A DNA stretch of 20,000 nucleotides from the IMG/VR virus record IMGVR_UViG_3300007512_002491; one strand, given 5' to 3'. The translations under genes were made by a program, and so were the position numbers. The stretch is from an uncultured virus (IMG/VR IMGVR_UViG_3300007512_002491) (taxonomy: Duplodnaviria > Heunggongvirae > Uroviricota > Caudoviricetes). Positions within the stretch are counted from its first letter, which is position 1. Each line of letters starts with the position of its first letter. Below the pieces are notes generated by a model. It saw only the letters and a program-made list of their open reading frames with translations, was not told where the DNA came from and did no database searches. Below are positions 1 to 20,000 of the stretch, piece after piece.

Positions 1-1780
1 TGCCAGAAGCACGCATCAAGGCTTTTATACCATGCATTGTCCCCTTGGATCTAATAACGTGATTGAGGTTTGTGAGCATCCTACGCCATATTTCATCCTG
101 AATTCTTCTCAGTGTTTTTTGAGAAAGAGATGGCTCATAATTAAGATTTTTACCAAAGTGAAACTGAGCTATATTAGCATTGGCAAAATTAGTAGGAAGA
201 TCGAACCCATAATGGTTAGCAAAAAACAGCAACATTTGATCTGAAATTGTGCCTTCGCTATCGTAATCCATTTTAAGCAAGTCACCAAATTGATCTATAT
301 AAACTTTTATTTCATCGAAAAATTTTGCCCAAGTAAAAAGTAAAGATGCAATAATTTGCGGTGATCCCATCTTGCCGCCACCTGGAAAATCTTTCGTATA
401 AGAATATGCGTCGCCTCTACCAGCATATTCGTCATCGTAGCCTTCTGTTGTTGAAGCTTCTAATAAATAATGTGCTGGTATTAACTTAGTGATTAAGTTT
501 GGGTTATTAGCATCATATAAACTTGCAGAATATAATAAGTCAACATTAAGAGCTACGACATCGGGTTGTGCCGGGAATAAAACTGGGTTTTTTGACTCGT
601 ATTCGTATAATACAGGCCGAGTTAGATCACGTAAGTCCCGAAGCGTATAATCAAAATTTTCTATTCTAGAATGAAGAGAATTTCCTGACGCATCGAGGAC
701 TATATTGTTGTTTGGATAAGAACCAGTAGCTTCATTAAACTTAAAATAAGCCTTTAGCTGCGGCGATGGCTGTACGCTAGCGCTCATTTCGGTCTTAATC
801 TGTTTTTGAGTTCTTAGCCCTTGGAATATTTTTACTTCGTCTAAGGAACCAGAAAAAGTTTGGTTTGGCCAAAAGCCGATCGAGAGATGCTTAGACCCAG
901 AACCAATCAATAGATCGCTAGCGCCGCCCGCAAAAGATCCCATCGCTGCGGAGTTTGAAGATGAAGCTACTAAATTACCAGAAAGATATATTCTCATCTG
1001 TGGTATGTCAGTCGTATTTCTATCATAAACACACGCGATGTGTCTCCACCCACCCCGAGGGATGCGTGCAGTAACTGTTTGAGATGTTGATCCGCTTGAT
1101 ATTCCGAACTTCAGCTGTGTATTCTTTAAATGGGCGCTAGGCGATAAGCCGATAGTGTATCCACCGACCGAGGCCACCCCATTGGGATCATTTATTTTTT
1201 GAAATACAACTTGCCTGCCATTGGCTTCATTCGGAACATGAATATAAAACTCTATTGAAAAGCTTTTTGTTCCGGGGTCTAAAACAGTTGCGGCGTCTCT
1301 TCTCGTAGAAAGCGAAGGATAAAGAATACCCGCGGTATCTTTTATTCTGATGTAGCTTCCCTCTGTTGGGGGTCCGTCATCAGACCCCGAAAAGAAAAGC
1401 CACCCCAGATGCTTTGGCCATTTATCAAATACCCATTTTTCAAATCCCGTGAGATTTTCCATAAAAAGATCAATGTCGCCCTGTTTTCCATCGAATGGAA
1501 AGTAGTTAATAACTGTATCAAAAGTAACGTTTACTTTTGACTCGGCTGAATTAAAAAATGTGTGATTAACAAAATCAGACCAATCTAAAGGTATTTGTTG
1601 CGTGCTTTTTAAAGGTGCGCCAGGAGCATCAAACTCAAATGAATCTCCGCCAATTAAAGACCCAGATAAATCCCCAGTGTCTTTCTTTAGAACTGTTGGA
1701 TCTTCTTCTGTTATTTTTGTTACAAGCCGAGGAGAAAAAAGACCTCCCCTAGTGAAAAAGCTTGTGGGGCGTTTTGCCAT
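1..1780 (-). CDS. Large baseplate wedge/tail protein with LamG (ConA-like) domain and gp7/P2-gpI-like motif; partial, runs off the left edge (at least 593 aa)
   Basis: Not in the ORF track; translated by hand. ATG at 1780 overlaps the upstream stop (TAATG) and the frame is open to the window edge (MAKRPTSFFTRGGLFSPRL...). LamG-like motifs at about 660-1270: SFSIEFYIH, WRHIACVYDR, MRIYLSGNLV, FSGSLDEVKIF, LKAYFKFNE, IVLDASGN. It ends EIWRRMLTNLNHVIRSKGTMHGIKALM, a KGT..GI..L motif typical of gpI/gp7-type wedge proteins. Confidence 0.8.
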   Translation of the reverse strand, partial: MAKRPTSFFTRGGLFSPRLVTKITEEDPTVLKKDTGDLSGSLIGGDSFEFDAPGAPLKSTQQIPLDWSDFVNHTFFNSAESKVNVTFDTVINYFPFDGKQGDIDLFMENLTGFEKWVFDKWPKHLGWLFFSGSDDGPPTEGSYIRIKDTAGILYPSLSTRRDAATVLDPGTKSFSIEFYIHVPNEANGRQVVFQKINDPNGVASVGGYTIGLSPSAHLKNTQLKFGISSGSTSQTVTARIPRGGWRHIACVYDRNTTDIPQMRIYLSGNLVASSSNSAAMGSFAGGASDLLIGSGSKHLSIGFWPNQTFSGSLDEVKIFQGLRTQKQIKTEMSASVQPSPQLKAYFKFNEATGSYPNNNIVLDASGNSLHSRIENFDYTLRDLRDLTRPVLYEYESKNPVLFPAQPDVVALNVDLLYSASLYDANNPNLITKLIPAHYLLEASTTEGYDDEYAGRGDAYSYTKDFPGGGKMGSPQIIASLLFTWAKFFDEIKVYIDQFGDLLKMDYDSEGTISDQMLLFFANHYGFDLPTNFANANIAQFHFGKNLNYEPSLSQKTLRRIQDEIWRRMLTNLNHVIRSKGTMHGIKALMRASG

Positions 1781-3315
1781 TAGTTCACCTTAAAGCTTGG
1801 GCTCGCTGCTTCATATATTCTATTTTGATCAAAGTCTTTTACTAACAAATCTATTACGTATACATGGCCGCGTGGGAGCGATTCACAACGGAGCTCAAAA
1901 CTTAATCCTCCGCTATTAGAAGAAAGTTTAGTGCCTCCGGTAGATGAATCAAAAGGAATAACTGTTTTACCAGTACTCTGATTTCTTATCCTATAATAAA
2001 CTTGCGATAAAATTATACTCTTTCTAGAATACGGAAGTTTACTAGCTTTATCTTTTATTTCAAAATTTCTTATAAAAATATTGAGCTTAGCTACATCTAA
2101 AGAGTTATAAGATTTTTCCATATTGGTAAAGTGGAAAAATAAATCAGCTGGAGCATAATTGTAAGATGTTCTATAGGGTAGCTTTACTTCTAAGCTGCCT
2201 GTATAATACCCAACTGTTCCGTCTATCGATGTCCAATATTCGTCAAATTCAACAGAGCCGCTCTTGTACGCGAGGTCTAATAATCTTTGAGTAGTGTTAA
2301 CTTTTGTAGCTTCGTTTAAAGAAACAGCGAAAGAAGCAGAATATAAACCCTTAGCTCCAGTGCTAGAAGTGCCATCTGTATGTTGAGATCCGGTAAAATA
2401 AAGAGCTAGATCTTGTTTTTCTAACCTAAGCATTATGCAGTTATTGCCAGAAAGCTCGGAAGCAGCAGTTCCAGATAAGATATTAGCAGGAGTTCCCCGG
2501 TGAAAATTATTTAAAAATATAGATCCACTCACGTCAAAAATAAAGTCTTCGTGGTGGTCGATAATACTGTCATCATAGCTAATATGAAGCTGTGGAGCTT
2601 TAAATGGATCTGACACGTGTCTTGATCCAAACCTCTTAACAAATCTAGTTTTCGTATCCGTTTCTTGAGAGCCACTAAAAGAAATCCTGAGCCCCATATT
2701 CGGTATTTGATCGCTCAATACACCAGAAACTATAGTAGTAATATCAATATCTAAATCTTCGCTGCCTTTTTTGAAAAGCTGAACTTTTCCAAGGTCTACT
2801 ACTCCAGAGCCCAAAGACCCAGAAGAAATATAGTCTATATCAGTAGATCCAAGTAGGCCACCGTGGTTAGCGCCCGTAACTTCCCAAACATTGGCTGAGC
2901 TATTAGAATAAGAGGCGGTTATCCAATTAGCAACATCTATGTCTTGAAATGCTGCTACATCTCTTCCGACACCCTCGTCGAAAGATTTTGAAAGTGGATA
3001 CACTATCGCTTTAAAGTTTTTTGGCACCCCTTGTCCAGCGTAAACGTCGAACAGTCTAAGTCTAGCCCTAAATGTATTAGAATTTACGTCTAATTTAGAA
3101 GCTGTCAAGCTTTGAATGGTGTCGAAATTAAACTTTAAAAGAATTCTAGAAAGCTCAATAGGGTAATTTGATCCAGAAAGAGAAGACTCGTTGTATAGCT
3201 TAAAAAGGTCTAAGGTTCCGGCTCTTCCAACATTCGCATCAGTAGCTCTAAACTTATTGTCTATTATTTTATTAGTAATATAAGTGCTTTTGCTAGCTGT
3301 CAAAATTAAATACAT
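1780..3315 (-). CDS. Virion structural (baseplate-associated) protein, 511 aa, N-terminal DNRLRE/CBM96-like beta-sandwich
   Basis: Lies between gp6 and the LamG wedge protein and is translationally coupled to the latter. The pattern ASKSTYI...NVG...SRILLKFNF...ARLRLF...VYPLSKSFDEG...ANW...W resembles DNRLRE-type domains. Rich in S/G/T. Confidence 0.6.
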   Translation of the reverse strand: MYLILTASKSTYITNKIIDNKFRATDANVGRAGTLDLFKLYNESSLSGSNYPIELSRILLKFNFDTIQSLTASKLDVNSNTFRARLRLFDVYAGQGVPKNFKAIVYPLSKSFDEGVGRDVAAFQDIDVANWITASYSNSSANVWEVTGANHGGLLGSTDIDYISSGSLGSGVVDLGKVQLFKKGSEDLDIDITTIVSGVLSDQIPNMGLRISFSGSQETDTKTRFVKRFGSRHVSDPFKAPQLHISYDDSIIDHHEDFIFDVSGSIFLNNFHRGTPANILSGTAASELSGNNCIMLRLEKQDLALYFTGSQHTDGTSSTGAKGLYSASFAVSLNEATKVNTTQRLLDLAYKSGSVEFDEYWTSIDGTVGYYTGSLEVKLPYRTSYNYAPADLFFHFTNMEKSYNSLDVAKLNIFIRNFEIKDKASKLPYSRKSIILSQVYYRIRNQSTGKTVIPFDSSTGGTKLSSNSGGLSFELRCESLPRGHVYVIDLLVKDFDQNRIYEAASPSFKVN

Positions 3316-3322
3316 TTTATTC

Positions 3323-5170: not shown

Positions 5171-5172
5171 AA

Positions 5173-5664
5173 TTATCCTCCCATATATAAAATGACTTCC
5201 ATTGCTTGCTGGTTAATTCCAGCAACTGGAGCCGAGTAAGTTATTCTTATTCCATTCGGTGCAGTGCCACCCGTGGTGCCATCTCTTGGAGTAGAAAAAG
5301 TTTCAAAATTATGTAAAGTTATAAACGGCATATATTTTTTTGTTGCTTTAGTGATTCTCAACATTGCTTCGGTGTCTGTGCTTTCCGAACCTAGCTCCAT
5401 TACAAGCTCTTGCAAATTAGCACCAAAATCATACATTCCAATTCTTTCACCGTGATTAGTAAGAATTAAATTTTTAAAATTATCTTTTATTAAAGACGCC
5501 TTGTCATGGTGCATCTCGAAAAGATTTCCGAAATCATAATCAAGCGCTACAGGAGTCTTAATTCCAATCGGTGGACGTCTTTTGATGTCCGTACGACGAG
5601 TCTGTCCGTATTCCTCGATAGTCTCACCAACAGACTTAAATTTATATGTTCTTGAGTTAGACAT
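5173..5664 (-). CDS. gp25: Baseplate wedge subunit gp25/GPW family, 163 aa
   Basis: IKDNFKNLILTNHGERIGMYDFGANLQELVME matches the gp25 L.T..GER...P.FG..L signature; sits immediately upstream of gp6. Confidence 0.88.
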   Translation of the reverse strand: MSNSRTYKFKSVGETIEEYGQTRRTDIKRRPPIGIKTPVALDYDFGNLFEMHHDKASLIKDNFKNLILTNHGERIGMYDFGANLQELVMELGSESTDTEAMLRITKATKKYMPFITLHNFETFSTPRDGTTGGTAPNGIRITYSAPVAGINQQAMEVILYMGG

Positions 5665-5690
5665 TTTCAGACCCTACTTTTTGCCGCTGT

Positions 5691-5700
5691 ATTAAATATT
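5691..5700 (-). promoter_or_regulatory. Candidate late-promoter-like AT motif (AATATTTAAT) upstream of gp25
   Basis: Found in the 64-bp gap ahead of the gp25-gp6 genes, with no good -35 box; analogous to the -10-only T4 late promoter. Single instance only. Confidence 0.25.
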
Positions 5701-5728
5701 CCTCAACATAATTTTATCTGATATTAAT

Positions 5729-6229: not shown

Positions 6230-6261
6230 TTTGTTATCCTTGTTGGTGTTGTGTTAGTTTG

Positions 6262-9110: not shown

Positions 9111-9422
9111 TTATTTTTCTGGTTCTGCTTCTTCTACTTCTTCTACGTCTCCCAAAATATTAGCTGTTTTTAAAATTTGATCTCTGCAGTCTTTTATATC
9201 TGTTATTACAGATCTAATTTCTTGGCTATCATAAAATAGCGGCATTTCGACTATTGTCGATATACTAGCGTATTTTGTATCAAAAACGTCAAGAGTTTCC
9301 TCAATTTGGTCGATGTATTTTAAAATAAGTTTTCCAAACTTAATATTATAATAAACTGAGAAAGATAGTAATACTGTAGACACACAAAGACAGCCCGCTA
9401 AAATTATGGTTAAGGTGTTCAC
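9111..9422 (-). CDS. Small membrane-anchored protein (N-terminal TM helix plus coiled coil), 103 aa
   Basis: Hydrophobic run LTIILAGCLCVSTVLLSFSVYY followed by amphipathic helices; 4-bp ATGA overlap with the upstream GT4. Confidence 0.65.
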   Translation of the reverse strand: MNTLTIILAGCLCVSTVLLSFSVYYNIKFGKLILKYIDQIEETLDVFDTKYASISTIVEMPLFYDSQEIRSVITDIKDCRDQILKTANILGDVEEVEEAEPEK

Positions 9423-10582
9423 TTTTCTATTTCGTCCAAAAATTCATCATATTTTTTACTGATCGCTTTATGAGAAAACTCTTCTTTTATTATTTTTGCT
9501 AAATCTTTAGCCCAACTCTTTGGTATATCGGAAGCTTTTCTAAATTTAGAAACTTTCTTTTTAAAATCAGACTCTATTACATCTGCCCAACAAGAACCCT
9601 CTACAAAAATACTATTATCTACTCTAGACTTATGGATTGGCACCAAACTATAATTAAGTTTTATAAATTTTCCCTTGTTTAGAAAATCTAAATGGCCTGA
9701 CCAGTTAGTGGCTATTATTGGAAGTTCAGAAGCGGCAGCTTCTAAAAGAGGCAATCCAAAACCTTCGCCTCTTGATGGAGCTACAAGAGCTTTTATCGAT
9801 TTTTCTCGATAAACATCTGATAATTCTTGTTCTGTTAAATCTCCATGAAGCAAATATATTTTAGGATATTCACCAGTGCGGACTTCGTCTATAAGATTTT
9901 TTAATAGACTCATCGTTATTCTTCTATCTACTTTAGTATTCTTTCCGTGATTAGTTTTAACAACAATGCCCACATCTGGATCGTCTTTAAAAGTTTCGCA
10001 AAGCCACTTTATGGCGAAGAAAGTATTTTTTCTGTCGTTAAAAGGATTGTTTCCAGTTATCTGACCGAATAGAAGAAAGTTAAAGCTGGTATCAAGAGAT
10101 AACGGCTGATTTTCTTCGCAGTTAACTAAAGCGTCTGGATAACTTTCTGGTATTACTGAAATTGGAACTGACAAGTTTCCTGAGTTCTGCAGTACTTTTT
10201 TAGTGTGTTCTGAAGGAACTATTATGTGGTTCATTTTATTGCATGCTTCGATCCACTTGGGTGAACACCGATCAGTTTCTACAGCGGCAGTTACACCCAC
10301 GTTGTAAGAAGCTAAAGACGAATCCCACTCATTTGGAAGCTGAACCTGAAACGAATAATCAAATCTTTCTGCTTGAGGGTTGTAATCTGTTCTCTTAAAA
10401 ATCTCTTTGATTAATCCATCTTGTCGATTTTCATCAAGTAACCAAGGAGTAATGCCCCATGGCAATGTTTGAACTTTTATTTCTATATCGTCTCTTTCAT
10501 GGAGCCACTTGAATATCTGGCGAGTGTGGACTCCATATCCAGAAAGAGTAAGAAGCGGTCCTCTAATAATAGCTTTTTTCAT
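9419..10582 (-). CDS. Glycosyltransferase family 4 (GT-B), 387 aa
   Basis: N-terminal SGYGVHTR; IIVPSEH; RKNT; C-terminal PSRGEGFGLPLLEAAASELPIIATNWSGHLDF (EX7E motif). Confidence 0.93.
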   Translation of the reverse strand: MKKAIIRGPLLTLSGYGVHTRQIFKWLHERDDIEIKVQTLPWGITPWLLDENRQDGLIKEIFKRTDYNPQAERFDYSFQVQLPNEWDSSLASYNVGVTAAVETDRCSPKWIEACNKMNHIIVPSEHTKKVLQNSGNLSVPISVIPESYPDALVNCEENQPLSLDTSFNFLLFGQITGNNPFNDRKNTFFAIKWLCETFKDDPDVGIVVKTNHGKNTKVDRRITMSLLKNLIDEVRTGEYPKIYLLHGDLTEQELSDVYREKSIKALVAPSRGEGFGLPLLEAAASELPIIATNWSGHLDFLNKGKFIKLNYSLVPIHKSRVDNSIFVEGSCWADVIESDFKKKVSKFRKASDIPKSWAKDLAKIIKEEFSHKAISKKYDEFLDEIEK

Positions 10583-11829
10583 TTTACTTCTCCTAAGAAT
10601 TTTCTCTGATATTTTGATTTCCAGTTTTCTAAGGTGTCATTGAGAGTATCGTTCCAGAGATCAATTGTTTTTTGATAAGAAAATTCAGAATCTACGTAAT
10701 CTATAACCTTTTGCGATAGCTGCTCTTTTTCTTCTGGTGTTTTTTCATACATTTTCATAATGGCGTTTGCCACACTCTCGTTTGAGCAGTAATCTTCATA
10801 AATGTATGGAACACTCTGTGACCCAACCAAAGTTTTTAAATCTATATCAAGGGCAACACCATTTTCGGAGCCATCTCGATGATCAACAACTTGGCGAGTT
10901 AATCCCCCGGTTTTTGCAGCTATTATAGGAGTACCAGCTTGCATCGATTCTAAAGTAGCTAAACCGAAACCTTCAGCATAAGATATATTCAAACAAGCAT
11001 CACTGATATTGTGCATTATGTTTATTTGCTCGAAACCAACTCTTTGATTAGAGAAAACTACTGTATCTTGTATTCCGAGCATCTCTCCCGTGGCAAAAAG
11101 ATTGGGTCCTTCCGGGTCTTGGGGGTCTGTGTGCATCAATAAAGTAACGTCCCTTTTCCCATGTTTTTCTTCAAGTTGTTTCACAAACAAGCTCCAAGAT
11201 ACCAAGACATCGTTTGTTCTTTTTCTACGCGCGTTTCTGTTCATCCAAAATACGACAAAGTTATCTTTCTTTTCTTTTCCAAGAGCCTGCTCTTTCAAGC
11301 TTAAAATTTGAGATTTTTGCATAGGGAAAAATACATTTGGTGGTAAAGCGTGAGGAACAAAATTAGTTTTTTCTGGAAACTTTTCTCCGACCATCTTATA
11401 AGTTAAGTGAGAGTGGCAGTTGATTAAATCAGTTGATTGATAAAACTCGTTATTAAACTGGGGATATGGATAATTGTCCCAAACATGCCACCAAACTATA
11501 GGGCAAATTTGATGAATTTCATCCTCCATTTCAAATAGCCAGATGAAAAATCTCGGATCAGTAAAAATAAACAATATGTCTGGTTTTTCAGTAATTAAAG
11601 CTAACCTAAGCATATCGGGATTTCCAAAACCATCAATGGGCTTGATTATGAAATCTTCGCTCACTTGAACTACATCGTAATTTTCATGCTTTATTGCCGC
11701 ACCAAATTGTCTAAAAGACCATTCGCCCTTAGCTAATAAGCCATTCACTAAATGGCGAGTTTGAGTACCGACTCCCGAGGTACTCAAGGCATGATCTGAT
11801 AAAATTAGAATTTTTTTCTTTTTTTTCAT
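10579..11829 (-). CDS. Glycosyltransferase family 4 (GT-B), 416 aa
   Basis: ILILSDH...SGVGTQ; NRNARRKR; SYAEGFGLATLESMQAGTPIIAAKTGGL (EX7E motif); GGAGAGG Shine-Dalgarno. Confidence 0.93.
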   Translation of the reverse strand: MKKKKKILILSDHALSTSGVGTQTRHLVNGLLAKGEWSFRQFGAAIKHENYDVVQVSEDFIIKPIDGFGNPDMLRLALITEKPDILFIFTDPRFFIWLFEMEDEIHQICPIVWWHVWDNYPYPQFNNEFYQSTDLINCHSHLTYKMVGEKFPEKTNFVPHALPPNVFFPMQKSQILSLKEQALGKEKKDNFVVFWMNRNARRKRTNDVLVSWSLFVKQLEEKHGKRDVTLLMHTDPQDPEGPNLFATGEMLGIQDTVVFSNQRVGFEQINIMHNISDACLNISYAEGFGLATLESMQAGTPIIAAKTGGLTRQVVDHRDGSENGVALDIDLKTLVGSQSVPYIYEDYCSNESVANAIMKMYEKTPEEKEQLSQKVIDYVDSEFSYQKTIDLWNDTLNDTLENWKSKYQRKFLGEVK

Positions 11830-11861
11830 TTCGAAATTAACCTCTCCCTTCGAACTAATTC

Positions 11862-11890
11862 ATTTTAATAAAAAAGGGCCAAACGGTAAA
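11862..11890 (-). promoter_or_regulatory. Sigma70-like promoter TTTACC-N17-TAAAAT driving the GT4-GT4-TM-sigma-baseplate unit
   Basis: Minus strand reads TTTACC GTTTGGCCCTTTTTTAT TAAAAT with an exact 17-nt spacer, about 30 nt upstream of the GT4 start. Confidence 0.55.
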
Positions 11891-11901
11891 AAATGGCCCT
11901 T
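11870..11901 (-). terminator. Intrinsic terminator-like hairpin after the nuclease gene
   Basis: 8-bp inverted repeat AAGGGCCA / TGGCCCTT (11894-11901 with 11874-11881), 12-nt loop, running into a T tract on the minus strand. Confidence 0.55.
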
Positions 11902-11924
11902 AGAAACTTTAATTTTTTAAACTG

Positions 11925-12746
11925 CTATGTGCAGTATTCTGTATCTTTGTAGTCGCAAAAAGTGCAACTCATTCTATTTTTAACAAAAAATCCCCTGTAG
12001 ACATTTTTGATCATGCTAGAAACCATTTTATTAGCTTGTTCTAAAGCTTTGGGACCAGCGGAAACTTTTAATAATCCGCACATATTGCCCGGCTTTCCGC
12101 CCCTCTTTAGAAGAACAAACGCACACCCAACATCTTTAAACGGAATATTGTTTTTCGAAGCCCAGTAATATTTGTAGAGAACAAGCTGTGCCTGCATCAT
12201 GAAATCTCTTCTTTTTCTCTTGTCCCAACCATAAGATTTTGCTGTTTTCCAATCCAAAATCCAATATTTATATGTTCCATTTTTTCTAGGAACTTTGATG
12301 ATTGCGTCGATATAACCTTTAAATTTAATGTCTGCGCTATCTATCTCTTCGTATAGCATTTCTTCTGCGCTGACTCTTTCCCACTCTGGAAAATTTTCAT
12401 CTAAAAAATCAGGAACATCATCCCACATGTTCGAAGCCCACTCACACCACTCTTCTACCGGAACATGCTTGTACCATTTCGGCATCTTTTCATACCATTC
12501 TGGCTTATCAAAACCGTGCTTGTTCCAGGCATCTCGAATATTTTGAAGTAATCTTTCTTTTGGTATTTCGCCAGTGTTTAAAAAACTTTCGCACCCTTCA
12601 TGGACGTTAGTCCCGAAATCCAAATAGGGAGAAGGAGTTCCAAGGTCAATTTTATCAATATACGCCAGTTTGTGTCTATACGGACACTCTTTCCAGTTTT
12701 TTACTTCAGAATAAGAGATGTGTGGTTTTTCAGTAGGAAAATTCAT
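11925..12746 (-). CDS. PD-(D/E)XK nuclease, Cas4/AddB/RecB-like, probable Fe-S cysteines, 273 aa
   Basis: SYS...ECP (C21), GTNVH, FKGYIDAII, ILDWKT, QLVLY and C-terminal CTFC-x7-C. Confidence 0.88.
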   Translation of the reverse strand: MNFPTEKPHISYSEVKNWKECPYRHKLAYIDKIDLGTPSPYLDFGTNVHEGCESFLNTGEIPKERLLQNIRDAWNKHGFDKPEWYEKMPKWYKHVPVEEWCEWASNMWDDVPDFLDENFPEWERVSAEEMLYEEIDSADIKFKGYIDAIIKVPRKNGTYKYWILDWKTAKSYGWDKRKRRDFMMQAQLVLYKYYWASKNNIPFKDVGCAFVLLKRGGKPGNMCGLLKVSAGPKALEQANKMVSSMIKNVYRGFFVKNRMSCTFCDYKDTEYCT

Positions 12747-12754
12747 TATATAAA

Positions 12755-12783
12755 ATCATAAACAAAAACATGGCAATTGTTCA
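12755..12783 (-). promoter_or_regulatory. Possible promoter TGAACA-N17-TATGAT, 8 nt before the nuclease ATG (near-leaderless)
   Basis: Correct 17-nt spacing, and no Shine-Dalgarno in the 34-bp gap. Confidence 0.35.
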
Positions 12784-13665
12784 CATTTCTTTCTTAAAAT
12801 CAGCTATATATTCTAGTAAATTTGTTTTCGGTCTCCAGAGCGTAGCTGAAGTCATAGCTGATATATCTGCAAGGGTCTCTCTTGCTTCTCCTGGCCTTGC
12901 AGGAATGAATATAATATTATCACTAAACTCAAATGCTACGTCAAACAGAGAGTGATTTTGGCCGGTGCCCAAAGAAAAGACTTCTCCATTATGATTTCCG
13001 TCTGTTAGGCATATCAACCCAAGAACAATATCTGAAATATGTGTGAAGTCTCTTCTCTGCGTTCCGTCTCCTACCACAGTAAGCGATTCACCGCTTATGT
13101 ATTGCTGCTCAAATTTTCCTATAACTGTAGCCCACTCTCCAGTGATTGGCTGTCTGGGGCCGTATACATTAAAAAATCTAGCCACCGCAGTATTCATTTT
13201 ATAATTTTCTGAAAAGAGCCGGCATATGTCTTCTCCAGTATGCTTGGCAAATGCATATGGATTTAAAAGTGGTCCTCCGAACGCGGTGCTTGAACCTGCA
13301 TAAACTATTTTTGCATCTTTATTCTTTCTTCTCATAAAATCTAAAAGATAAAAAGTTCCTAAAGAATTTACTTCAAAATATCTAACTGGATCTGAAAAAG
13401 ATGGTTGAAGTCTTGCTAAAGCGGCTAGATGAAACACTATATCATAATGATCTAATTCTTTTTCTATCTTTGGAAGATCCACTATATCTTTAATAAGATA
13501 CTTTACTTCACTTCTCATATATTCGGAAGATGCAGACTCTGAAGATAGATCGTCTATAACAGTTATGTTTTTATAACCAGAAGATATTAATTCGTCTACT
13601 AAATTAGAGCCGACAAAACCTAGACCGCCTGTAACTAAAATATTTTTATCTGTATTAATCTTCAC
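12781..13665 (-). CDS. NAD-dependent NDP-sugar epimerase/dehydratase (extended SDR), 294 aa
   Basis: ILVTGGLGFVGS, VFHLAA, AGSS, YAFAK (YxxxK), RFFNVYGP, GDGTQRRDFTHI, RPGE. Confidence 0.93.
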   Translation of the reverse strand: MKINTDKNILVTGGLGFVGSNLVDELISSGYKNITVIDDLSSESASSEYMRSEVKYLIKDIVDLPKIEKELDHYDIVFHLAALARLQPSFSDPVRYFEVNSLGTFYLLDFMRRKNKDAKIVYAGSSTAFGGPLLNPYAFAKHTGEDICRLFSENYKMNTAVARFFNVYGPRQPITGEWATVIGKFEQQYISGESLTVVGDGTQRRDFTHISDIVLGLICLTDGNHNGEVFSLGTGQNHSLFDVAFEFSDNIIFIPARPGEARETLADISAMTSATLWRPKTNLLEYIADFKKEM

Positions 13666-14506
13666 TAACGGCTCGCCCTTTCATAGATTCCCAGTCTTTA
13701 TTATTTCTAACTTCTGAATTTTTTAGTTTAGCCGCTTTAAGAACTTTGGGATCAATGTCTAGTTTTTTAGCCATATAAATCATAGCATTAAGGTCTTTTG
13801 GAAAACAGTGGCCGCCGAAACCAAAATCACCATCTGGGCCAGGGACCTGAAGATGTGATGTTCCTATTCTTTTATCCAAAAGAGCTCCAGACACCACTCT
13901 AGAATAATCTGCATTTAAAGATTCACATAGTTGATAGAATTCATTAGCAAATGAGACTTTTGCAGCTAAGAAGCAGTTTATGAAATATTTCACAAGTTCT
14001 GCAGTTACGTATGTTGTGGTAAAATAACTTATATTTGGAAATACTTTTTGAAATACTTTTTGAGCTTTTTCACAATCGGATGGATGGCCACCAAGTACTA
14101 TTCTATTTTGATTCTTAAAATCTTCTGCGGCATTGGCTTCAGTAAGAAACTCTGGATTGAAAACAAGGTTTAAATTTCTATATTCGCTGCTCCAGCCTGA
14201 GTGAGTCTGAGGCGGGACCGTAGATTTCGTGATTACCAACTTGCTTTTATTTATTTCTAATAAGCAATTGTTTATTTCTTTCAGCGCGGATTCAATAATT
14301 CTAGTGTCGCAACTTCCGTCTTTTCTCATTGGGGTAGGCAAACAAACAAACAAAACATCTGATTTCCAAACTAGCTCACCGATAGATTCAACCGTGGCTT
14401 TTTCAGGTATTAGATCGTAAGTTTCTATTTTATAAGCTTTTTCTAATCCTAGCTTCACAGAAGACCCGACAAACCCTTGGCCCAGAATTCCAATAGTTGT
14501 CTGCAT
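13655..14506 (-). CDS. ugd: UDP-glucose/GDP-mannose 6-dehydrogenase family, short form, 283 aa
   Basis: GILGQGFVG, FVCLPTP, KSTVPP, FNPEFL.E, AELVKY..N.FLA.KVSFANE, GFGGHCFPKD (catalytic Cys). Confidence 0.88.
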   Translation of the reverse strand: MQTTIGILGQGFVGSSVKLGLEKAYKIETYDLIPEKATVESIGELVWKSDVLFVCLPTPMRKDGSCDTRIIESALKEINNCLLEINKSKLVITKSTVPPQTHSGWSSEYRNLNLVFNPEFLTEANAAEDFKNQNRIVLGGHPSDCEKAQKVFQKVFPNISYFTTTYVTAELVKYFINCFLAAKVSFANEFYQLCESLNADYSRVVSGALLDKRIGTSHLQVPGPDGDFGFGGHCFPKDLNAMIYMAKKLDIDPKVLKAAKLKNSEVRNNKDWESMKGRAVSED

Positions 14507-16143
14507 TACTCTGCACCTTTTCGTTTTATGAGCTTCTTATATTCTGGAAAATAAAGATAGTCAATGTTGGTTCCTAAAAAGCAGTTTAGAGCATGCTCAA
14601 CATTTTCGCAAATGGGCTCTCTATCATTGAAGCTTGTGTTAAGTATGATTGGTACTCCAGATGCCTTATGCCAAGCTTGCAAAAAATCATAGTACCACTT
14701 ATTATCAGTCTCTCTAACCGTTTGTAGTCTTGCTGTTCCATCTAAATGAACCACAGCTGGTACTAAATCAACTTTTTCTTTTTTAAATTTTAAAACAAAC
14801 TGCATGTACGGACTCTCTTGATATTCTTCGAACCAATCTGAGGCTTCAGACTCTAATATAGAGGGAGCAAAAGGGCGATACCATTGCCGATGCTTGACCT
14901 TTTCATTGATAGTATCTTTCATTGTCGTTGATCTTGGATCTACTAATATGCTTCTATTTCCAAGAGCTCGCCGGCCAGATTCAGACGAGCCGTTGAATAC
15001 CGACACTATATTTCCCTCTTGAAGCTTTGAAACTATATCTTCTACGCTTGATTCTAAAACTTCTATGTCATTTTTTCTATTTTCTAAAACTTCATTAAAA
15101 TGTTCTTCAGTCCAAGTTTCTCCTAAATATGGAGTAAAATTATGCTCCCATTTAATTCTCGGATTTCCAAGCTCTTCGTGCCACAGAGCCTGTGCCGCTC
15201 CTATACACAATCCACCGTCATAAGGTACAGGGGGTATATAGACTCTCTTTAATTGCGGGAACCACTTCAATAATTTTCCCATGGCAACAGAATTTAAAGT
15301 GACACCACCAGCTAAACAAATTGAATCTATATCGCTATCAAAGCTTAGCGCATATTCTATTATTTGTCTTATAAGAGCTTCGGTCGCTTCTTGCAAACCA
15401 GCAGCTATATCAAATCTATTTTGCTCTGACTCTCTAGCATGAGCGGCCCACGGTTCTAAATAAGGGTGGGGTGGATCACGGTCTGAAGTTGCTCCAACTG
15501 GTTGGTTTGGAGGCTTAAACCCAGCAGACATCTTGTCTTTGGTTAACCAATTCCAGCAGTCTTGAGCCCAGATAGATGCATCACCAAAAGCAGCCATGGC
15601 CATTACAGAACCCTCTTGGCCTCCTCTTGGCCACCCGTTCTGAAGCTTAAATACATACCTTGTTACTCGTGTCCACACACCTCCGATATTAATCTCGTTA
15701 GGCCGAAAGGTCTTTAGATGCTTCAATTCTGTTCCATCACCCCTCCAGATCGTACATGCAGACTCTCCACCGCGGTCGTCTTCTACACCACCACCATCTA
15801 AAGTGACGATTATAGATTTCTCAAAATTACTAGAATAAAAAGCGTTTGCTGCGTGAGCTTTATGATGTGAGCAAAAATATAGCTTTCCACCATTGGCGTC
15901 TATGTGGTTTTTTAATAAACTATAAGATTCTTCTCTTTCCGTTAGTTTTTTCTTTGGATATACAGAAGCAAAATGAGTTATAGCAGGCCACTCTGGATAC
16001 CTGTCAAACATAAAGTTAGAAGAATCTCCCGGCGGGGATTTTTCTCTATTGTAGCGTTCATATTCAGCGTGAATTAAAGGTTTCCCATCTTCTAAAACGC
16101 AAAAAGAACAGTCGTGACCCGACCAAAGTCCCGCTATTTTCAT
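14506..16143 (-). CDS. O-carbamoyltransferase, NodU/CmcH/TobZ family, 545 aa
   Basis: GHD, ERYNREK, HHKAHAANAFY, TLDGGG, LAGGVTLN, DGGLCIGAA, ESGRRALGNRSILVDP, VKHRQWYRPFAP, VVHLDGTARLQTV, LNTSFN. Confidence 0.95.
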   Translation of the reverse strand: MKIAGLWSGHDCSFCVLEDGKPLIHAEYERYNREKSPPGDSSNFMFDRYPEWPAITHFASVYPKKKLTEREESYSLLKNHIDANGGKLYFCSHHKAHAANAFYSSNFEKSIIVTLDGGGVEDDRGGESACTIWRGDGTELKHLKTFRPNEINIGGVWTRVTRYVFKLQNGWPRGGQEGSVMAMAAFGDASIWAQDCWNWLTKDKMSAGFKPPNQPVGATSDRDPPHPYLEPWAAHARESEQNRFDIAAGLQEATEALIRQIIEYALSFDSDIDSICLAGGVTLNSVAMGKLLKWFPQLKRVYIPPVPYDGGLCIGAAQALWHEELGNPRIKWEHNFTPYLGETWTEEHFNEVLENRKNDIEVLESSVEDIVSKLQEGNIVSVFNGSSESGRRALGNRSILVDPRSTTMKDTINEKVKHRQWYRPFAPSILESEASDWFEEYQESPYMQFVLKFKKEKVDLVPAVVHLDGTARLQTVRETDNKWYYDFLQAWHKASGVPIILNTSFNDREPICENVEHALNCFLGTNIDYLYFPEYKKLIKRKGAE

Positions 16144-16155
16144 TATAACTCCAAT

Positions 16156-17178
16156 TTAACTGTTTAGCCAGTCTTCTAAAAATTTATCTTCTTCACTAGT
16201 AGTGAGTGGTTCTGTGTTTGAATAGTCAAAATAATTTAGCTCTACCCATTCTCCAGGCAAGGCTGTGTCAGGACGTATTGGATTTTTTAACCAAGAACCA
16301 TGTTCGTCTATAGGCGCATTAAATCCTATAGTTTTTACTACTTCTTCTATACTCCAAGGGCGGCCTCCTGTTGCGGTTTTATCTTGAATCAATTTTTCAT
16401 AATCTAATATTTCATAGTATCTAAAATCTGATTTTGCCGGCCAATAATCGCCGTATCTACGATTACCCCTTACTCTAGCGTTGGTTCCTCGAGAATCTGT
16501 GTATATGGCAGCAGCCGGCGGAAATATAGGCATAATAGTTTTCCACTTTAGCTTTCTGCGGTAAACTAGCGCGGCAGCTTTTTGTAGCATTTTTGTTTCA
16601 GAGTCATCAGAACCTTCGTGACTACTATTTCTTATTTCCCAAGGATACATTTCTCTTAACACTTCTCTAGAAAAGAAAGCATCTGCCGCGCCAGCGACAG
16701 GAGGCCTATCTAAATCGGCAACGAAAGAATAATCGTTTACAGAGACTGGTTCTGTTAATTTATGAGAATCGTGTGTAACTCTTCTTTGCGCGTCAAGAGA
16801 TATGCATCCAACTTGCGGGCCGTATTGAATAGCTAGCTCGACGTAATCTTTTAGCCAGCCGCCCTTTAATATAAACTGCATATCGCCCTGGAGTAAGATT
16901 ACGTAATCTCCCGTAGAGTTTTCTACTATCTTGTTTAGACCTCTAGCAAACTCGTTAGAAGGATCTCTATGTTCGCTCCTAAAAACAATGAACCCTTGGC
17001 CTTCTTTTTCTTTCAAATATTCTTCTGTGCCTTCTTCAACAGAATTATTATCTACAATTATCAATTCTTTATTTGGGTAATCTTGAGTACAATAAAGAAA
17101 AGATTCTACGCAGCTTTTAAGATAGTGAAGCCTGTTGCAATTAACGAATCCAACGGACACTTTCGGTAAATCGGTCAT
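16156..17178 (-). CDS. Glycosyltransferase family 2 (GT-A), 340 aa
   Basis: KVSVGFVNCNR...LKSCVES...ELIIVDNNS.EGT...ARGLN...STGDYVILLQGD. Confidence 0.88.
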   Translation of the reverse strand: MTDLPKVSVGFVNCNRLHYLKSCVESFLYCTQDYPNKELIIVDNNSVEEGTEEYLKEKEGQGFIVFRSEHRDPSNEFARGLNKIVENSTGDYVILLQGDMQFILKGGWLKDYVELAIQYGPQVGCISLDAQRRVTHDSHKLTEPVSVNDYSFVADLDRPPVAGAADAFFSREVLREMYPWEIRNSSHEGSDDSETKMLQKAAALVYRRKLKWKTIMPIFPPAAAIYTDSRGTNARVRGNRRYGDYWPAKSDFRYYEILDYEKLIQDKTATGGRPWSIEEVVKTIGFNAPIDEHGSWLKNPIRPDTALPGEWVELNYFDYSNTEPLTTSEEDKFLEDWLNS

Positions 17179-17196
17179 GTTTCTCTCAGTTGTATA

Positions 17197-17225
17197 ATTT
17201 TATTAAAAAACATATTCATGAACAA
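17197..17225 (-). promoter_or_regulatory. Sigma70-like promoter TTGTTC-N17-TAAAAT upstream of GT2
   Basis: Exact 17-nt spacer in the 64-bp gap, followed by a GAGAG Shine-Dalgarno-like site and ATG. Same -10 hexamer as the 11862-11890 promoter. Confidence 0.5.
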
Positions 17226-17242
17226 GCTCGAGTTAAAACTTT

Positions 17243-18001
17243 TTATCTTCTTGTTCGAAGAGTGGCTAAACTTTCTATTGCGGGATTATCAAACCTTAAA
17301 ACTGTTATGCATAGATTTTGCCAGTCTTCTCCAAACAGTCTGATTTTCTTTATCGGACGTTCGCGTGTTTTAAAAGGTATTATTTGATCGAATGGCCAGG
17401 TAGAAACATCTGACATATTTGCAAAACTTAAAATTATTCTATTTTCATTATCTACAACTTTGGGAAAATTTTCTTTAATATGCTTAGCTGTCAGGAATTT
17501 TTTTTCTTGAAAGTTTATTTTACGGCCCCCAAGAGGACAGTGCGCGAAACCCCAAACATAATATACGTCGCCGTCTGCATAAAGCTCCTTTTCTTCTATC
17601 GCTTCCCAAAAATTTTGTTTTTTATACAATTTTATGTTTTTTATTTTATCGCATCTTGGATTACTCCTGACTTTCGACGATATTTCAATACCATACACCA
17701 TTTTTGCATATTTCGAAAATCCAAAAGATAGATCTCCTGATCCGCATCCGAGATCTACCACCACTTTATCTTTGATTAAATTTTTTACCACATGTGGAAC
17801 TTCATATGGAGAGCGAACCCCTGCTGGAGACACTAGATTTTTTGTAAGATACTCTAGATAGTCTGGACCGCATACTAATGGCTTGGTAGTTTTTCTTTTA
17901 ATCGGCTTTTTCTTCTTATCGTGGTCTCGAAAAGATTCATCCACACCTAACATTCTCTTGATAGAAGAAATATGCGCAGGAGATAGAACGTTTTTATCCA
18001 T
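17243..18001 (-). CDS. Class I SAM-dependent methyltransferase, 252 aa
   Basis: Motif I VVVDLGCGSGDL and motif II VYGIEIS; basic N-terminal extension; substrate unknown. Confidence 0.78.
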   Translation of the reverse strand: MDKNVLSPAHISSIKRMLGVDESFRDHDKKKKPIKRKTTKPLVCGPDYLEYLTKNLVSPAGVRSPYEVPHVVKNLIKDKVVVDLGCGSGDLSFGFSKYAKMVYGIEISSKVRSNPRCDKIKNIKLYKKQNFWEAIEEKELYADGDVYYVWGFAHCPLGGRKINFQEKKFLTAKHIKENFPKVVDNENRIILSFANMSDVSTWPFDQIIPFKTRERPIKKIRLFGEDWQNLCITVLRFDNPAIESLATLRTRR

Positions 18002-19028
18002 TTATCATTTCCTCTATTATCGCATTCAAGCTATATTTCATGCTCCAAGAAGGATAGTGAGATTTAAATTTAGACATATCGGTGTAGTAACATATGTGAT
18101 CACCAATTCTTGCTTCACTAGAGTGCGAATAATTCAATTCGTATCCAGAAATTTCTTGTATTAAACTTATCACTTCTAATACAGACGCGCTATTGTGCAC
18201 GCCTCCACCGAGATTGTATACTTCTCCCTTTTTAGGATCTGCGGCAAACTCTTCAAAAACTCTTACCACATCGTAACAGTGAATTTGGTCTCTAACCTGT
18301 TTTCCTTTATAGCCAAAAATAGTATATGGATTACCAGATTTTGCGCACTTTATGATGTAAGAAAGAAAACCATGCAGCTCTACCCCAGCATGTTGCGGTC
18401 CGGTTAGACAGCCGCCTCTGAAGACTCCAACGTTCAAGCCAAAGTATCTACCATACTCTTGCGCCAAGATATCTCCAGCGACCTTAGAGGCCCCGAAAAG
18501 AGAATGCAGACAACTATCTATAGAAAAATCTTCAGCGATGCCGTTTTTATATTTTTCATCAGCAAAATCATATCGAGTTTGCCCCTCTGTTAAATCAAGA
18601 TAGTTAGGCCCGTCTCCATACACTTTATTAGTGCTCACGTGTATAAAAACTGAAGATTCGCTACAGTGGTTTCGAAAAGATTCTAAAAGATTTAATGTTC
18701 CATTTGCGTTAACTTCAAAATCTAAATGCGGAATATCTGCAGCCTTGTCATGGCTGGGTTGTGCTGCACAATGAATCAAAAGATCGGGCTGAAATGATGA
18801 AATAGCTTCATCGACAGCCAGCTTATTTGTTATGTCAATATTTGTGTGGCTATAATTTTTATAAGCTGAAAGTCTTAAAATTGTAGAGCTTACATCTCCG
18901 CCCGGACCAAAGAAAACCATCCGCATATTGTTGTCAACGCCCTTCACTGTAACATTCTGCTTTTTTAAAAAATATTCAGCAGCTTCGCTACCTATTAAGC
19001 CCCCAGAACCTGTAACTAGTACTCTCAT
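17994..19028 (-). CDS. NAD-dependent epimerase, CDP-paratose/tyvelose 2-epimerase-like SDR, 344 aa
   Basis: VLVTGSGGLIG, HCAAQPSHD, STNKVYGD, HSLFGASK, RGGCLTGP, GYKGKQVRDQIH, GEVYNLGGG, RIGDHICY. Confidence 0.88.
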   Translation of the reverse strand: MRVLVTGSGGLIGSEAAEYFLKKQNVTVKGVDNNMRMVFFGPGGDVSSTILRLSAYKNYSHTNIDITNKLAVDEAISSFQPDLLIHCAAQPSHDKAADIPHLDFEVNANGTLNLLESFRNHCSESSVFIHVSTNKVYGDGPNYLDLTEGQTRYDFADEKYKNGIAEDFSIDSCLHSLFGASKVAGDILAQEYGRYFGLNVGVFRGGCLTGPQHAGVELHGFLSYIIKCAKSGNPYTIFGYKGKQVRDQIHCYDVVRVFEEFAADPKKGEVYNLGGGVHNSASVLEVISLIQEISGYELNYSHSSEARIGDHICYYTDMSKFKSHYPSWSMKYSLNAIIEEMING

Positions 19029-19742
19029 TTAATCGCCCTTTATAATTCTATAGCTGTCTGTGTCAAAGTGCTGAGTTGAAAATTCGAACAACTCTGAATC
19101 TTCTAGGGCTATCATCCTATGCCGAAGACCTCTATAAACGTGAAAATTGTCACCTGGGTTTAGTATAAGCTCTTCGGCTTTAGAAATATCATCTTGCTCT
19201 GAATATTTTACTAGCATCTTTCCAGACTGTAGATAAAACACTTCGTCTTTGAGAGCATGACGATGCCAAGAACACATTTTTCCCTTATTAAAAAAAAGAA
19301 GTTTGCCGCAATATTCTGGGCCATTACATATCCAGCGTTCCCAGCCCCATCCTTTTTCTACATGGTTCATCTCTAAGTTAGTTTTTCTTGGCAAAAATCT
19401 AGCAGAATTTTTATTTTTCTTTATTCCGCTAAAAAAATCTTTATCTAACATTCCTTTGTCATCAACGTAAATATCGGCCGCTGGTTTTCCCAACAAAAGT
19501 CGGTGGTGTTTTGCTCCCCAAGACGCTAATTGATTTTTAGTAAATTCGTAAAATTGACTGCATGCTTTTTCTCTATTTCCATTATGCCTACCCATTCCTC
19601 TTGCGGTCATATATGTTATATTGTTTCCAGAATCATACAAATCATTTATGTATTCTATTCTTTCTTCTAAAGGAGAAGCAGTACTATAATCGGTTCCAGA
19701 GACTCTGCATATAGTGCCGTCTATATCGAAAACATAATTCAT
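19029..19742 (-). CDS. Fusion of a capless HAD phosphatase (aa 1-105) and a cupin sugar-isomerase-like domain (aa 125-237)
   Basis: HAD motifs FDIDGT, MTAR, GKP..D.YVDDK; cupin motifs KGWGWERW, CSWHRH..KDEVFY, HRMIA, EFST.H. Confidence 0.85.
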   Translation of the reverse strand: MNYVFDIDGTICRVSGTDYSTASPLEERIEYINDLYDSGNNITYMTARGMGRHNGNREKACSQFYEFTKNQLASWGAKHHRLLLGKPAADIYVDDKGMLDKDFFSGIKKNKNSARFLPRKTNLEMNHVEKGWGWERWICNGPEYCGKLLFFNKGKMCSWHRHALKDEVFYLQSGKMLVKYSEQDDISKAEELILNPGDNFHVYRGLRHRMIALEDSELFEFSTQHFDTDSYRIIKGD

Positions 19743-20000
19743 CTATATACCCCTCAAGCTTTTTCTCTTTTCTAGCTCGGAACCGAGAGGTTTTCTTGGA
19801 CCACTCTTGCCAAAAGATTTTTCAATATCTCTAATTCCTTTTACAAGCTTAATTAATCCTCCTGGTTCTACAGAAGAAAGTTGGTCGCTTCCCCACATAA
19901 CTCGGTCGAGTGTTATGTGGCGCTCTATCCAAGTAGCTCCCATTGCGACTGCGGCAAAGGTGGTAACCAAACCAAATTCATGACCGCTATAACCGATATC
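19743..20000 (-). CDS. neuB: N-acetylneuraminate/nonulosonic acid (9-phosphate) synthase, NeuB/SpsE family, C-terminal part (partial)
   Basis: The frame is open to the window edge, longer than the track's 75 aa: DIGYSGHEFGLVTTFAAVAMGATWIERHITLDRVMWGSDQLSSVEPGG. It ends without a C-terminal SAF/antifreeze domain. Confidence 0.92.
   Translation of the reverse strand, partial: DIGYSGHEFGLVTTFAAVAMGATWIERHITLDRVMWGSDQLSSVEPGGLIKLVKGIRDIEKSFGKSGPRKPLGSELEKRKSLRGI

Follow-up and report, generated by a model that had tools for sequence, protein, structure and literature searches.

A Ser/Thr-Gly/Ala-Ser motif enriched in outer virion proteins of a T4-distant myovirus clade is a candidate O-glycosylation sequon

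The DNA analyzed here, a stretch of 20,000 nucleotides (the window), comes from an uncultured virus of the Caudoviricetes (IMG/VR IMGVR_UViG_3300007512_002491), whose complete record of 293,409 bp with direct terminal repeats is called G000 below. Two proteins encoded after a gp6-like baseplate wedge gene, an all-β virion protein of 511 amino acids (aa) and a LamG protein of 1163 aa, carry many copies of the tripeptide [ST][GA]S. Protein sequences indicate selection for the motif hydrophobic-[Ser/Thr]-[Gly/Ala]-Ser-hydrophobic on outward-facing virion proteins. The trait is a property of a deep clade of T4-distant myoviruses that comprises this phage, more than 1,000 uncultured aquatic relatives, and the three cultured phages with the most closely related capsid proteins, Microcystis phage Mel-JY01, Flavobacterium phage immuto, and Rhodothermus phage RM378. 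Our leading explanation, held tentatively, is that [ST][GA]S is an acceptor motif (sequon) for O-glycosylation by a conserved pair of phage glycosyltransferases (GTs).

The motif exceeds composition and depends on residue order

The translated open reading frames (ORFs) give exactly the sites listed in the preliminary description of this DNA: 11 in the 511-aa protein, eight in the part of the LamG protein that lies within the window, none in the gp6-like and gp25-like wedge proteins, and three in a 568-aa protein that was labelled the hub. The whole 1163-aa LamG protein has 15 sites. Composition predicts 1.57 sites for the 511-aa protein and 1.26 for the partial LamG protein, and in 20,000 residue shuffles of each protein the observed count was never reached, which confirms the excess claimed earlier. 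Three sites in the hub protein are not a significant excess (0.94 expected, p = 0.064). Because the motif had been picked post hoc from the sequence, unbiased motif scans were run over both whole proteins, and the excess also withstood multiple testing in these scans. SGS was the most over-represented of all exact tripeptides (12 versus 1.52 expected, p = 7.6e-8), and [ST][GA]S ranked first of 4,913 class motifs (26 versus 4.4, p = 2e-12).

The signal depends on the order of the residues: [ST][GA]S is over-represented 5.9-fold, compared with 1.36-fold for [ST]S[GA], 0.91-fold for [GA][ST]S, and 1.13-fold for [GA]S[ST]. The third position is Ser and seldom Thr (SGS 12 versus SGT 2, TGS 6 versus TGT 0, and xAS 8 versus xAT 0). 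Across 185 sites of enriched proteins, a hydrophobic residue precedes the motif in 62% and follows it in 49%, against a background of 31%. The codons vary between sites, so the signal is not a nucleotide word, and a nucleotide-level cause was ruled out.

Enriched proteins are virion surface proteins

Among the 334 ORFs of the genome, the 511-aa and LamG proteins rank first and second for the motif. The suggestion that it is confined to outer baseplate proteins proved too narrow, as fiber-like proteins, both sheath paralogs, and capsid proteins also carry it. The further enriched proteins have 2349 aa (45 sites versus 20.4 expected), 1463 aa (21 versus 6.6; encoded beyond the far side of the sugar island described below), 844 aa (a second LamG protein, 11 versus 2.35), 699 aa (17 versus 6.2), 868 aa (10 versus 3.3), and 461 aa (7 versus 1.85), and the two tail-sheath paralogs have 8 versus 2.2 and 9 versus 2.4 sites. 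Grouped after the ranks had been seen, which flatters the contrast, 11 outer or fiber-like proteins hold 159 sites versus 54.1 expected (2.9-fold), the sheath, capsid, and neck proteins 26 versus 9.5 (2.7-fold), and the 285 ORFs outside the virion block 68 versus 79.0 (0.86-fold). The comparison of virion with non-virion proteins that had been proposed as a check thus places the excess on virion-surface proteins.

Two giant proteins of the virion block show no excess, one of 1110 aa (4 versus 4.2) and one of 1933 aa (2 versus 5.3). The 1110-aa ORF (G000 146000-149332) has weak HINT/intein-like matches near its N-terminus, both under the Pfam cut-offs. The genome encodes a T4-type portal and terminase, and its two capsid proteins (632 and 629 aa) and two tail-sheath proteins (1050 aa each) are tandem paralogs at G000 176269-180150 and 183880-190235; all four have some motif excess.

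Sites are inherited and turn over

The 511-aa protein has no Pfam or PHROG match and is one of a large family that numbers at least 1,698 word-index matches and 1,864 cluster representatives at E ≤ 0.001. Each of its 120 closest homologs (47-100% identity) has 5-14 sites, with a mean of 9.6 versus 1.6 expected. Nine of the 11 sites are conserved in position, each in 58-96% of these homologs; at the conserved sites, the first residue alternates between Ser and Thr, and the middle residue varies among Gly, Ala, and Ser. The Ser/Thr residues of the motif remain Ser/Thr in 90% of sequences versus 61% for other Ser/Thr residues (Mann-Whitney p = 1.4e-5). When the nine core sites are masked, the remainder still shows a 2.5-fold excess (2.64 versus 1.06) spread over 28 variable columns, and it is because this excess persists that we conclude that sites turn over as well as being inherited.

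Orthologs from IMG/VR relatives repeat the pattern of the window. The 511-aa orthologs (n = 113) have 1,015 sites versus 172.4 expected, the LamG orthologs (n = 75) 1,103 versus 244.1, and the hub orthologs (n = 55) 76 versus 58.4 (1.3-fold), whereas gp6-like proteins (n = 120; 52 versus 141.9) and gp25-like proteins (n = 111; 9 versus 21.1) fall below composition; given the shared ancestry of the sequences, the totals cannot be read as independent counts. The depletion in the wedge proteins is seen across loci L017-L234.

In the wider family, 112 full-length cluster representatives have 1-18 sites, and 17 of them have four or fewer. Motif-poor orthologs (31-41% identity to the window protein) have 1-3 sites, and their core columns hold Asp, Asn, Glu, Lys, Gln, Arg, and other polar, charged, or hydrophobic residues. 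Because orthologs without most of the sites exist, the 511-aa fold does not need the motif, and the polar and charged replacements, as far as sequence can tell, suggest that the sites are exposed. Scanning IMG/VR with single proteins for the lineages P0264 and P0154, both poor in the motif, gave nothing, and an alignment-based IMG/VR scan returned only motif-rich relatives with 6-14 sites.

The motif excess is shared by cultured relatives and absent from T4, RsoM2USA, and P-HM1

Genome-wide, the ratio of observed to expected [ST][GA]S sites is 1.68 in this phage (seven ORFs at p < 1e-3), 2.03 in immuto (three ORFs), 2.06 in Mel-JY01 (seven ORFs), and 2.23 in RM378 (two ORFs). The ratio is 0.78 in T4, 1.25 in RsoM2USA, and 1.22 in P-HM1, none of which has an ORF at p < 1e-3. 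In the cultured relatives, the enriched proteins are the protein after gp6, the LamG ortholog, a fiber paralog family, the sheath (except in RM378), a capsid protein, and the neck; the gp6-like protein, portal, and terminase have no sites, and few if any occur in replication enzymes. The virion proteins of T4 (21 examined) have 4 sites versus 13.6 expected, the same downward trend as in the inner wedge proteins. The T4, P-HM1, and RsoM2USA controls rule out a generic property of fiber proteins.

These comparisons also bear on the simplest alternative, that the motif is a composition or low-complexity artifact of fibrous proteins. The enriched proteins are indeed rich in Ser, Thr, and Gly, and the permuted motifs reach 1.94-fold in Mel-JY01, so that part of the Mel-JY01 excess reflects compositional clustering. 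Against this, shuffles that keep composition never reach the counts, the permuted motifs stay near 1 in the other six of the seven compared genomes, immuto, RM378, and this phage among them, gp6-like proteins of similar Ser/Thr content have no sites, and the fiber proteins of T4 and P-HM1 show no excess. The controls already contradict the artifact reading, which we regard as very improbable.

A conserved GT4 pair accompanies the motif

Two adjacent GT genes lie on the same strand as the baseplate-type genes, the reading frame of the first (416 aa) overlapping the second (387 aa) by 4 nucleotides (nt). Both proteins have the features of GT4 membership, a Glycos_transf_1 match above the cut-off (PF00534 bit scores of 36.6 and 47.2, cut-off 26.4) and the conserved E-x7-E motif, whose glutamates are invariant in 41 sequences each (E286 and E294 in the 416-aa protein; E273 and E281 in the 387-aa protein). 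A complex of the two proteins was predicted with a score of 0.88 (best of three controls, 0.00), a mark reached by 116 of 157 solved complexes and 2 of 215 mismatched pairs; these calibration counts are only rough, because our own alignments were used, and solved GT-B heterocomplexes may have aided the model. Three runs agreed in at least 97% of contacts, with a partner predicted local distance difference test score (pLDDT) of at least 90, and the C-terminal tail of the 416-aa protein contributes to the predicted interface. The two GT4 proteins are therefore predicted by the model to form a heterodimer.

For the GT4 pair (TRANSFERASES), a search of 50,697 phage records for orthologs of the 416-aa protein found them only in immuto (4 records), Mel-JY01, RM378, and the uncultured phage LR756508, all of the same clade. 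A Glycos_transf_1 search found adjacent pairs in immuto and Mel-JY01 and one match in RM378; T4, P-HM1, and XacN1 gave no match, and RsoM2USA gave only one below the threshold. The motif excess and the 416-aa ortholog coincide: the four genomes with the ortholog (this phage, immuto, Mel-JY01, and RM378) all have the excess, and the three without it (T4, RsoM2USA, and P-HM1) do not. In IMG/VR relatives, the gene order is fixed as nuclease, 416-aa GT, 387-aa GT, three small genes, hub, gp25, gp6, 511-aa protein, and LamG protein. Where a locus extends at least 9.9 kb upstream of the baseplate genes, both GTs are present there in 53 of 55 cases, and where it extends 8.6-9.9 kb, in 7 of 7; a few contigs enter these counts twice. 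In one of the two exceptions the GT lies ~20 kb further upstream. The pair does not adjoin the baseplate genes in immuto or RM378.

Upstream of the GT4 pair lies a sugar island of ~31 kb, part of which is in the window; the remainder continues past the window end at G000 ~82-103 kb and encodes two GT2 proteins, a GT4, a GT9, a GT29 sialyltransferase-like protein, PseB- and PseC-like enzymes, and two formyltransferases. Altogether, the island has three GT2 transferases, a GT4, a GT9, and a GT29-like transferase, together with epimerases, a kinase, and a nonulosonic-acid pathway (NeuB with PseB- and PseC-like enzymes). The GT29 sialyltransferase-like gene (1e-21; G000 100948-101574) lies near neuB (102200-103021, overlapping the window end), separated from it by one 215-aa ORF. 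None of the 37 ORFs of G000 77-114 kb has more than one hydrophobic segment, so no multi-pass membrane protein is encoded there, and no Pfam match to lipid-carrier, flippase, or polymerase families was found among the ORFs scanned. An island that is soluble and lacks such matches fits direct transfer of sugars in the cytoplasm.

In the mechanism we propose, the two-subunit GT4 enzyme, with E-x7-E intact in both subunits, would add the first sugar to Ser/Thr of newly made virion proteins, and this acceptor step would be cytoplasmic. Soluble transferases of the neighboring variable island, including the nonulosonic-acid pathway and the GT29 sialyltransferase-like protein, would extend the chain. 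The targets would be the two proteins after gp6, the fiber-like giants, the sheath paralogs, and the capsid proteins. Three links in this scheme are inferred: exposure of the sites, a protein substrate for the GT pair, and recognition of the motif by the pair. Over-representation beyond composition, restriction to one class of putative substrates, and positional turnover, three of the hallmarks of a sequon, are found here. The earlier proposal of a selected acceptor motif for the nearby GTs therefore agrees with the enrichment, the bias to surface proteins, and the co-occurrence with the GTs; the support is circumstantial and comes from a single clade.

Glycosylation or a structural motif

Several observations weigh against glycosylation. 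All genomes with both the motif and the GTs belong to one clade, so their co-occurrence counts as a single evolutionary event, and no GT-less relative was found to serve as a control, the GTs being present wherever a flank or record could be searched. The proposed test of motif density against presence of the GT4 pair thus has a favorable side in the four-to-three split of genomes and an unfavorable one in the lineage of P0270 (loci L237 1209-21516 and L236, found by a metagenome scan). This lineage keeps both GTs in place (61% and 47% identity), yet 1 site versus 1.0 expected is left in its 511-aa ortholog, and the two large ORFs that follow hold 2 versus 2.0 and 1 versus 2.8; only its LamG ortholog stays enriched (8 versus 1.9). 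The nuclease gene accompanies the GT4 pair in conserved synteny throughout the clade, and in RM378 the pair sits among replication genes. Literature searches on immuto, RM378, Mel-JY01, and relatives turned up no report of a virion glycan.

DNA is a possible sugar acceptor as well, because the GT pair travels with a nuclease and the genome has thymidine-modification genes. G000 encodes a divergent thymidylate-synthase-family protein (225301-226146), a protein with the helical domain of 5-hydroxymethyldeoxyuridine (5-hmdU) DNA kinase (230242-231687), and ThyX (215658-216464), a combination that, from sequence similarity, suggests hypermodified thymidine in the virion DNA.

The predicted structure gives a further reason for doubt. 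An AlphaFold2 model of the 511-aa protein (mean pLDDT 80.1, predicted template modeling score 0.79) consists of strings of β sandwiches; the sites are mostly located within predicted β strands of its folded domains or at strand ends, and the third sandwich region (about residues 255-385) holds five of them. By residue alternation, the Gly/Ala falls on the hydrophobic face, in a packing-like arrangement, and the two hydroxyl residues on the opposite face. Foldseek matched the model to C3-type MG-domain strings and a carbohydrate-binding module (CBM) in the PDB and to FN3 or CBM96-like phage proteins in BFVD; these are generic β-sandwich strings, and no known baseplate protein was among them. 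Gene order makes the protein a putative outer baseplate part, and since the fold and family searches are uninformative, its placement is still inferred from that order.

A second structural resemblance is found in immuto, where a 1053-aa tail fiber has 53 sites as tandem hydrophobic-[ST][GA]S-aromatic repeats and so looks like a structural fiber repeat. This fiber (L100 7615-10776) is annotated as a tail spike protein; its N-terminal half is made up almost entirely of short repeats (SGSF, TASY, TGSF), with GDGSGLTGI-type units between the repeat blocks.

A structural or assembly motif without any modification is accordingly a possibility, nearly as likely as the sequon. Here, an amphipathic strand with Ser/Thr and Ser on one face and the small Gly/Ala on the other would let virion modules and fiber repeats pack or zip together, and the GT4 pair and island would serve the phage DNA or the host envelope. 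The strand positions of the sites, the conservation of nine of 11 in place, the hydrophobic flanks that put Gly/Ala on the hydrophobic face, and the regular arrays of the immuto fiber all speak for it, as do the ties of the GT pair to the nuclease everywhere and to replication genes in RM378, the encoded thymidine-hypermodification kit, and the P0270 lineage with its GTs and a protein that has lost its sites. It is harder to reconcile with a fold that survives the loss of nearly all sites and their replacement by charged and polar residues, or with the excess in the 28 non-conserved columns. The motif also spans unrelated folds (β sandwiches, LamG, sheath, capsid, and the tandem fiber repeats of immuto), yet it is depleted in inner wedge proteins of similar composition and shows no excess in the fiber and baseplate proteins of T4, P-HM1, and RsoM2USA. 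Packing, moreover, would not obviously demand Ser over Thr at the third position.

That the motif serves another kind of modification or a recognition event is improbable. The candidates are phosphorylation by a PrkA-type kinase-like protein encoded with YeaH and SpoVR homologs, sulfation, acylation, or binding of an assembly chaperone. The prkA, yeaH (DUF444), and spoVR genes are a bacterial triad of adjacent genes at G000 64556-68992 (Pfam 4.6e-137, 6.4e-110, and 8.9e-123), and two sulfotransferase-like proteins and many chaperones are encoded too; the conserved, exposed-looking Ser/Thr pairs under selection would suit any of these. The candidate genes are unlinked to the virion genes, however, unlike the GT pair, and no known consensus of the candidate enzymes is matched.

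Comparison with known glycosylation systems

Virion O-glycosylation by phage-encoded glycosyltransferases is documented in mycobacteriophages (Freeman et al. 2023, as summarized in PMC12619734), where, according to that summary, capsid and tail-tube subunits carry the glycans at their C-termini. The summary is part of the "moraphage" paper, which describes another jumbo phage lineage. As in the mycobacteriophages, a tailed phage here has its own glycosyltransferases, and virion structural proteins are the acceptors, shown there and proposed here. The candidate sites here are instead internal (residues 6-372 of 511), scattered, and strand-adjacent, and occur on baseplate, fiber, sheath, and capsid proteins; the hosts and the phage lineage are unrelated, and the present system is a sequence-based proposal.

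The closest functional parallels would be cytoplasmic hyperglycosylation systems of bacteria. The serine-rich repeats of Gram-positive adhesins have Ser-x-Ser-type Ser/Thr contexts. As described in PMC6973325, the cytoplasmic GtfA-GtfB complex primes O-GlcNAc on these adhesins, nearby variable GTs extend the glycan, and the two proteins interact through DUF1975, GtfB being a non-catalytic chaperone. The phage pair would resemble it as two adjacent GT-B proteins in a predicted complex, presumably cytoplasmic, with variable extending GTs nearby and candidate acceptor Ser/Thr in Ser-x-Ser-type contexts. A Pfam scan at E ≤ 0.01 found only Glycos_transf_1, Glyco_trans_1_4, and GT4-conflict in the two phage GTs, and no DUF1975. 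Both keep the invariant E-x7-E, so that neither appears non-catalytic by sequence, and the acceptors are folded β-rich virion proteins, not long disordered repeats. The TibC/AAH autotransporter heptosyltransferases act on TibA/AIDA-I, and TibC is a dodecamer with an iron finger (as described in PMC4358343). Like the enzyme proposed here, TibC is soluble and cytoplasmic and hyperglycosylates many Ser residues of a β-rich surface protein before export or assembly; it differs from the GT4 heterodimer predicted here in being a dodecameric iron-finger heptosyltransferase. The proposed system would work most like GtfA/GtfB or TibC, yet it lacks defining features of both.

Flagellins and pilins carry O-linked pseudaminic or legionaminic acid on surface Ser/Thr of self-assembling filament proteins, to our knowledge without a strict sequon in flagellins. 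The island resembles these systems in that its transferases adjoin a nonulosonic-acid pathway of the NeuB type, with PseB- and PseC-like enzymes, and differs in the lack of a flagellin-type acceptor. No Pfam family named for Maf-type transferases appeared among the scanned proteins, although no search aimed at Maf was made. In proteoglycans, xylosylation takes place at Ser adjoining Gly, the analogy offered in the preliminary description. It fits poorly: the motif needs Ser after Gly/Ala as its third residue and a preceding hydrophobic residue, and its sites lie in or beside β strands and not in acidic Ser-Gly loops, without acidic flanks. No GT14 or xylosyltransferase-type family turned up in the family scans.

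On balance, O-glycosylation is the reading we prefer, at rather less than an even chance: this large and abundant clade may coat its tail, fibers, and head with sugars, the GT4 heterodimer reading hydrophobic-[ST]-[GA]-S on surface strands and a fast-changing island building lineage-specific glycans, here including a nonulosonic acid. If so, phages of Gram-negative and cyanobacterial hosts would have their first described system of sequon-directed protein O-glycosylation, and virion glycosylation would count as a core trait of a phage clade widespread in aquatic habitats, no mere oddity of a few mycobacteriophages. It would also provide a simple sequence mark for predicting sugar-coated virion surfaces, along with a candidate two-subunit enzyme, and would give a purpose to the large sugar islands of marine phages, usually ascribed to remodeling of the host surface. 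A sugar coat on fibers or baseplate could alter adsorption, stability, stickiness to marine particles, grazing, or immune recognition. The three cultured relatives make the question directly testable. Should the motif prove structural instead, it would still amount to a design rule for outer virion proteins that is specific to the clade and unusually clean.

Organization of the window

The window corresponds to G000:C1:102764-122763 on the reverse strand, and all 20 of its long ORFs are on the minus strand. Read from high to low coordinates, they fall into three blocks. First comes the end of the sugar island (NeuB, cupin protein, epimerase, methyltransferase, GT2, carbamoyltransferase, UDP-glucose dehydrogenase-like protein, and second epimerase), followed by the nuclease, the GT4 proteins of 416 and 387 aa, and three small proteins. 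The baseplate-type genes come last (the 568-aa hub, a 166-aa protein, the gp25-like and gp6-like proteins, the 511-aa protein, and the first 593 aa of the LamG protein). Window positions 1-6300 had no DNA-level match among the 50,697 phage records, and tblastn with the 511-aa protein gave no match either. Feature coordinates are listed in Table 1.

Table 1. Features of the window, all on the minus strand, with the positions of [ST][GA]S sites.
Feature	Window coordinates	Family match	Sites and remarks
LamG protein, N-terminal 593 of 1163 aa	2..1780 (-)	Laminin_G_3, PF13385, 2.9e-19, residues 169-329	Remainder past window start
Sites of LamG protein in window	1666-1658, 1390-1382, 1096-1088, 901-893, 853-845, 784-776, 727-719, 529-521 (-)		Residues 39, 131, 229, 294, 310, 333, 352, 418
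All-β virion protein, 511 aa	1780..3315 (-)		11 sites; directly after gp6-like wedge gene
Sites of 511-aa protein	3300-3292, 3177-3169, 3105-3097, 2919-2911, 2823-2815, 2676-2668, 2529-2521, 2394-2386, 2340-2332, 2262-2254, 2202-2194 (-)		Residues 6, 47, 71, 133, 165, 214, 263, 308, 326, 352, 372
gp6-like inner baseplate wedge protein, 615 aa	3323..5170 (-)	phrog_219, baseplate wedge subunit	0 sites versus 1.13 expected; internal comparison
gp25-like wedge protein, 163 aa	5173..5664 (-)	PF04965 below curated cut-off; phrog_43	0 sites
Hub (label of preliminary description), 568 aa	6262..7968 (-)	No Pfam or PHROG match	3 sites
GT4-type glycosyltransferase, 387 aa, second of pair	9419..10582 (-)	PF00534, PF13692, PF20706, all above cut-off	
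GT4-type glycosyltransferase, 416 aa, first of pair	10579..11829 (-)	PF00534, PF13692, PF20706	
Hairpin, 8 bp, GC-rich, then U run	11830..11924 (-)		Intergenic; between nuclease gene and the gene string of GT4 pair and baseplate
PD-(D/E)XK nuclease	11925..12746 (-)	PF12705, 5.2e-23	
Sugar island, part in window	12781..20000 (-)		Two epimerase/dehydratases, UDP-glucose dehydrogenase-like, carbamoyltransferase, GT2, methyltransferase, cupin protein, NeuB end

The intergenic hairpin weakly resembles a terminator. The fold of the whole 95 nt has a z-score of only -0.59, and a terminator consensus scan did not flag it because its loop is 12 nt. The T4-type late promoter TATAAATA is not enriched, with 8 occurrences per strand. 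A promoter-like conserved box, TGGTATAATAnTAnTATAAGG, stands ahead of at least seven genes at G000 13-45 kb and 245-283 kb and is of early type; there is none in the sugar island or virion block and none near the GT pair. In a simple hydropathy scan, a 1585-aa ORF (G000 192370-197127) has 11 hydrophobic segments and is the sole such protein in the genome.

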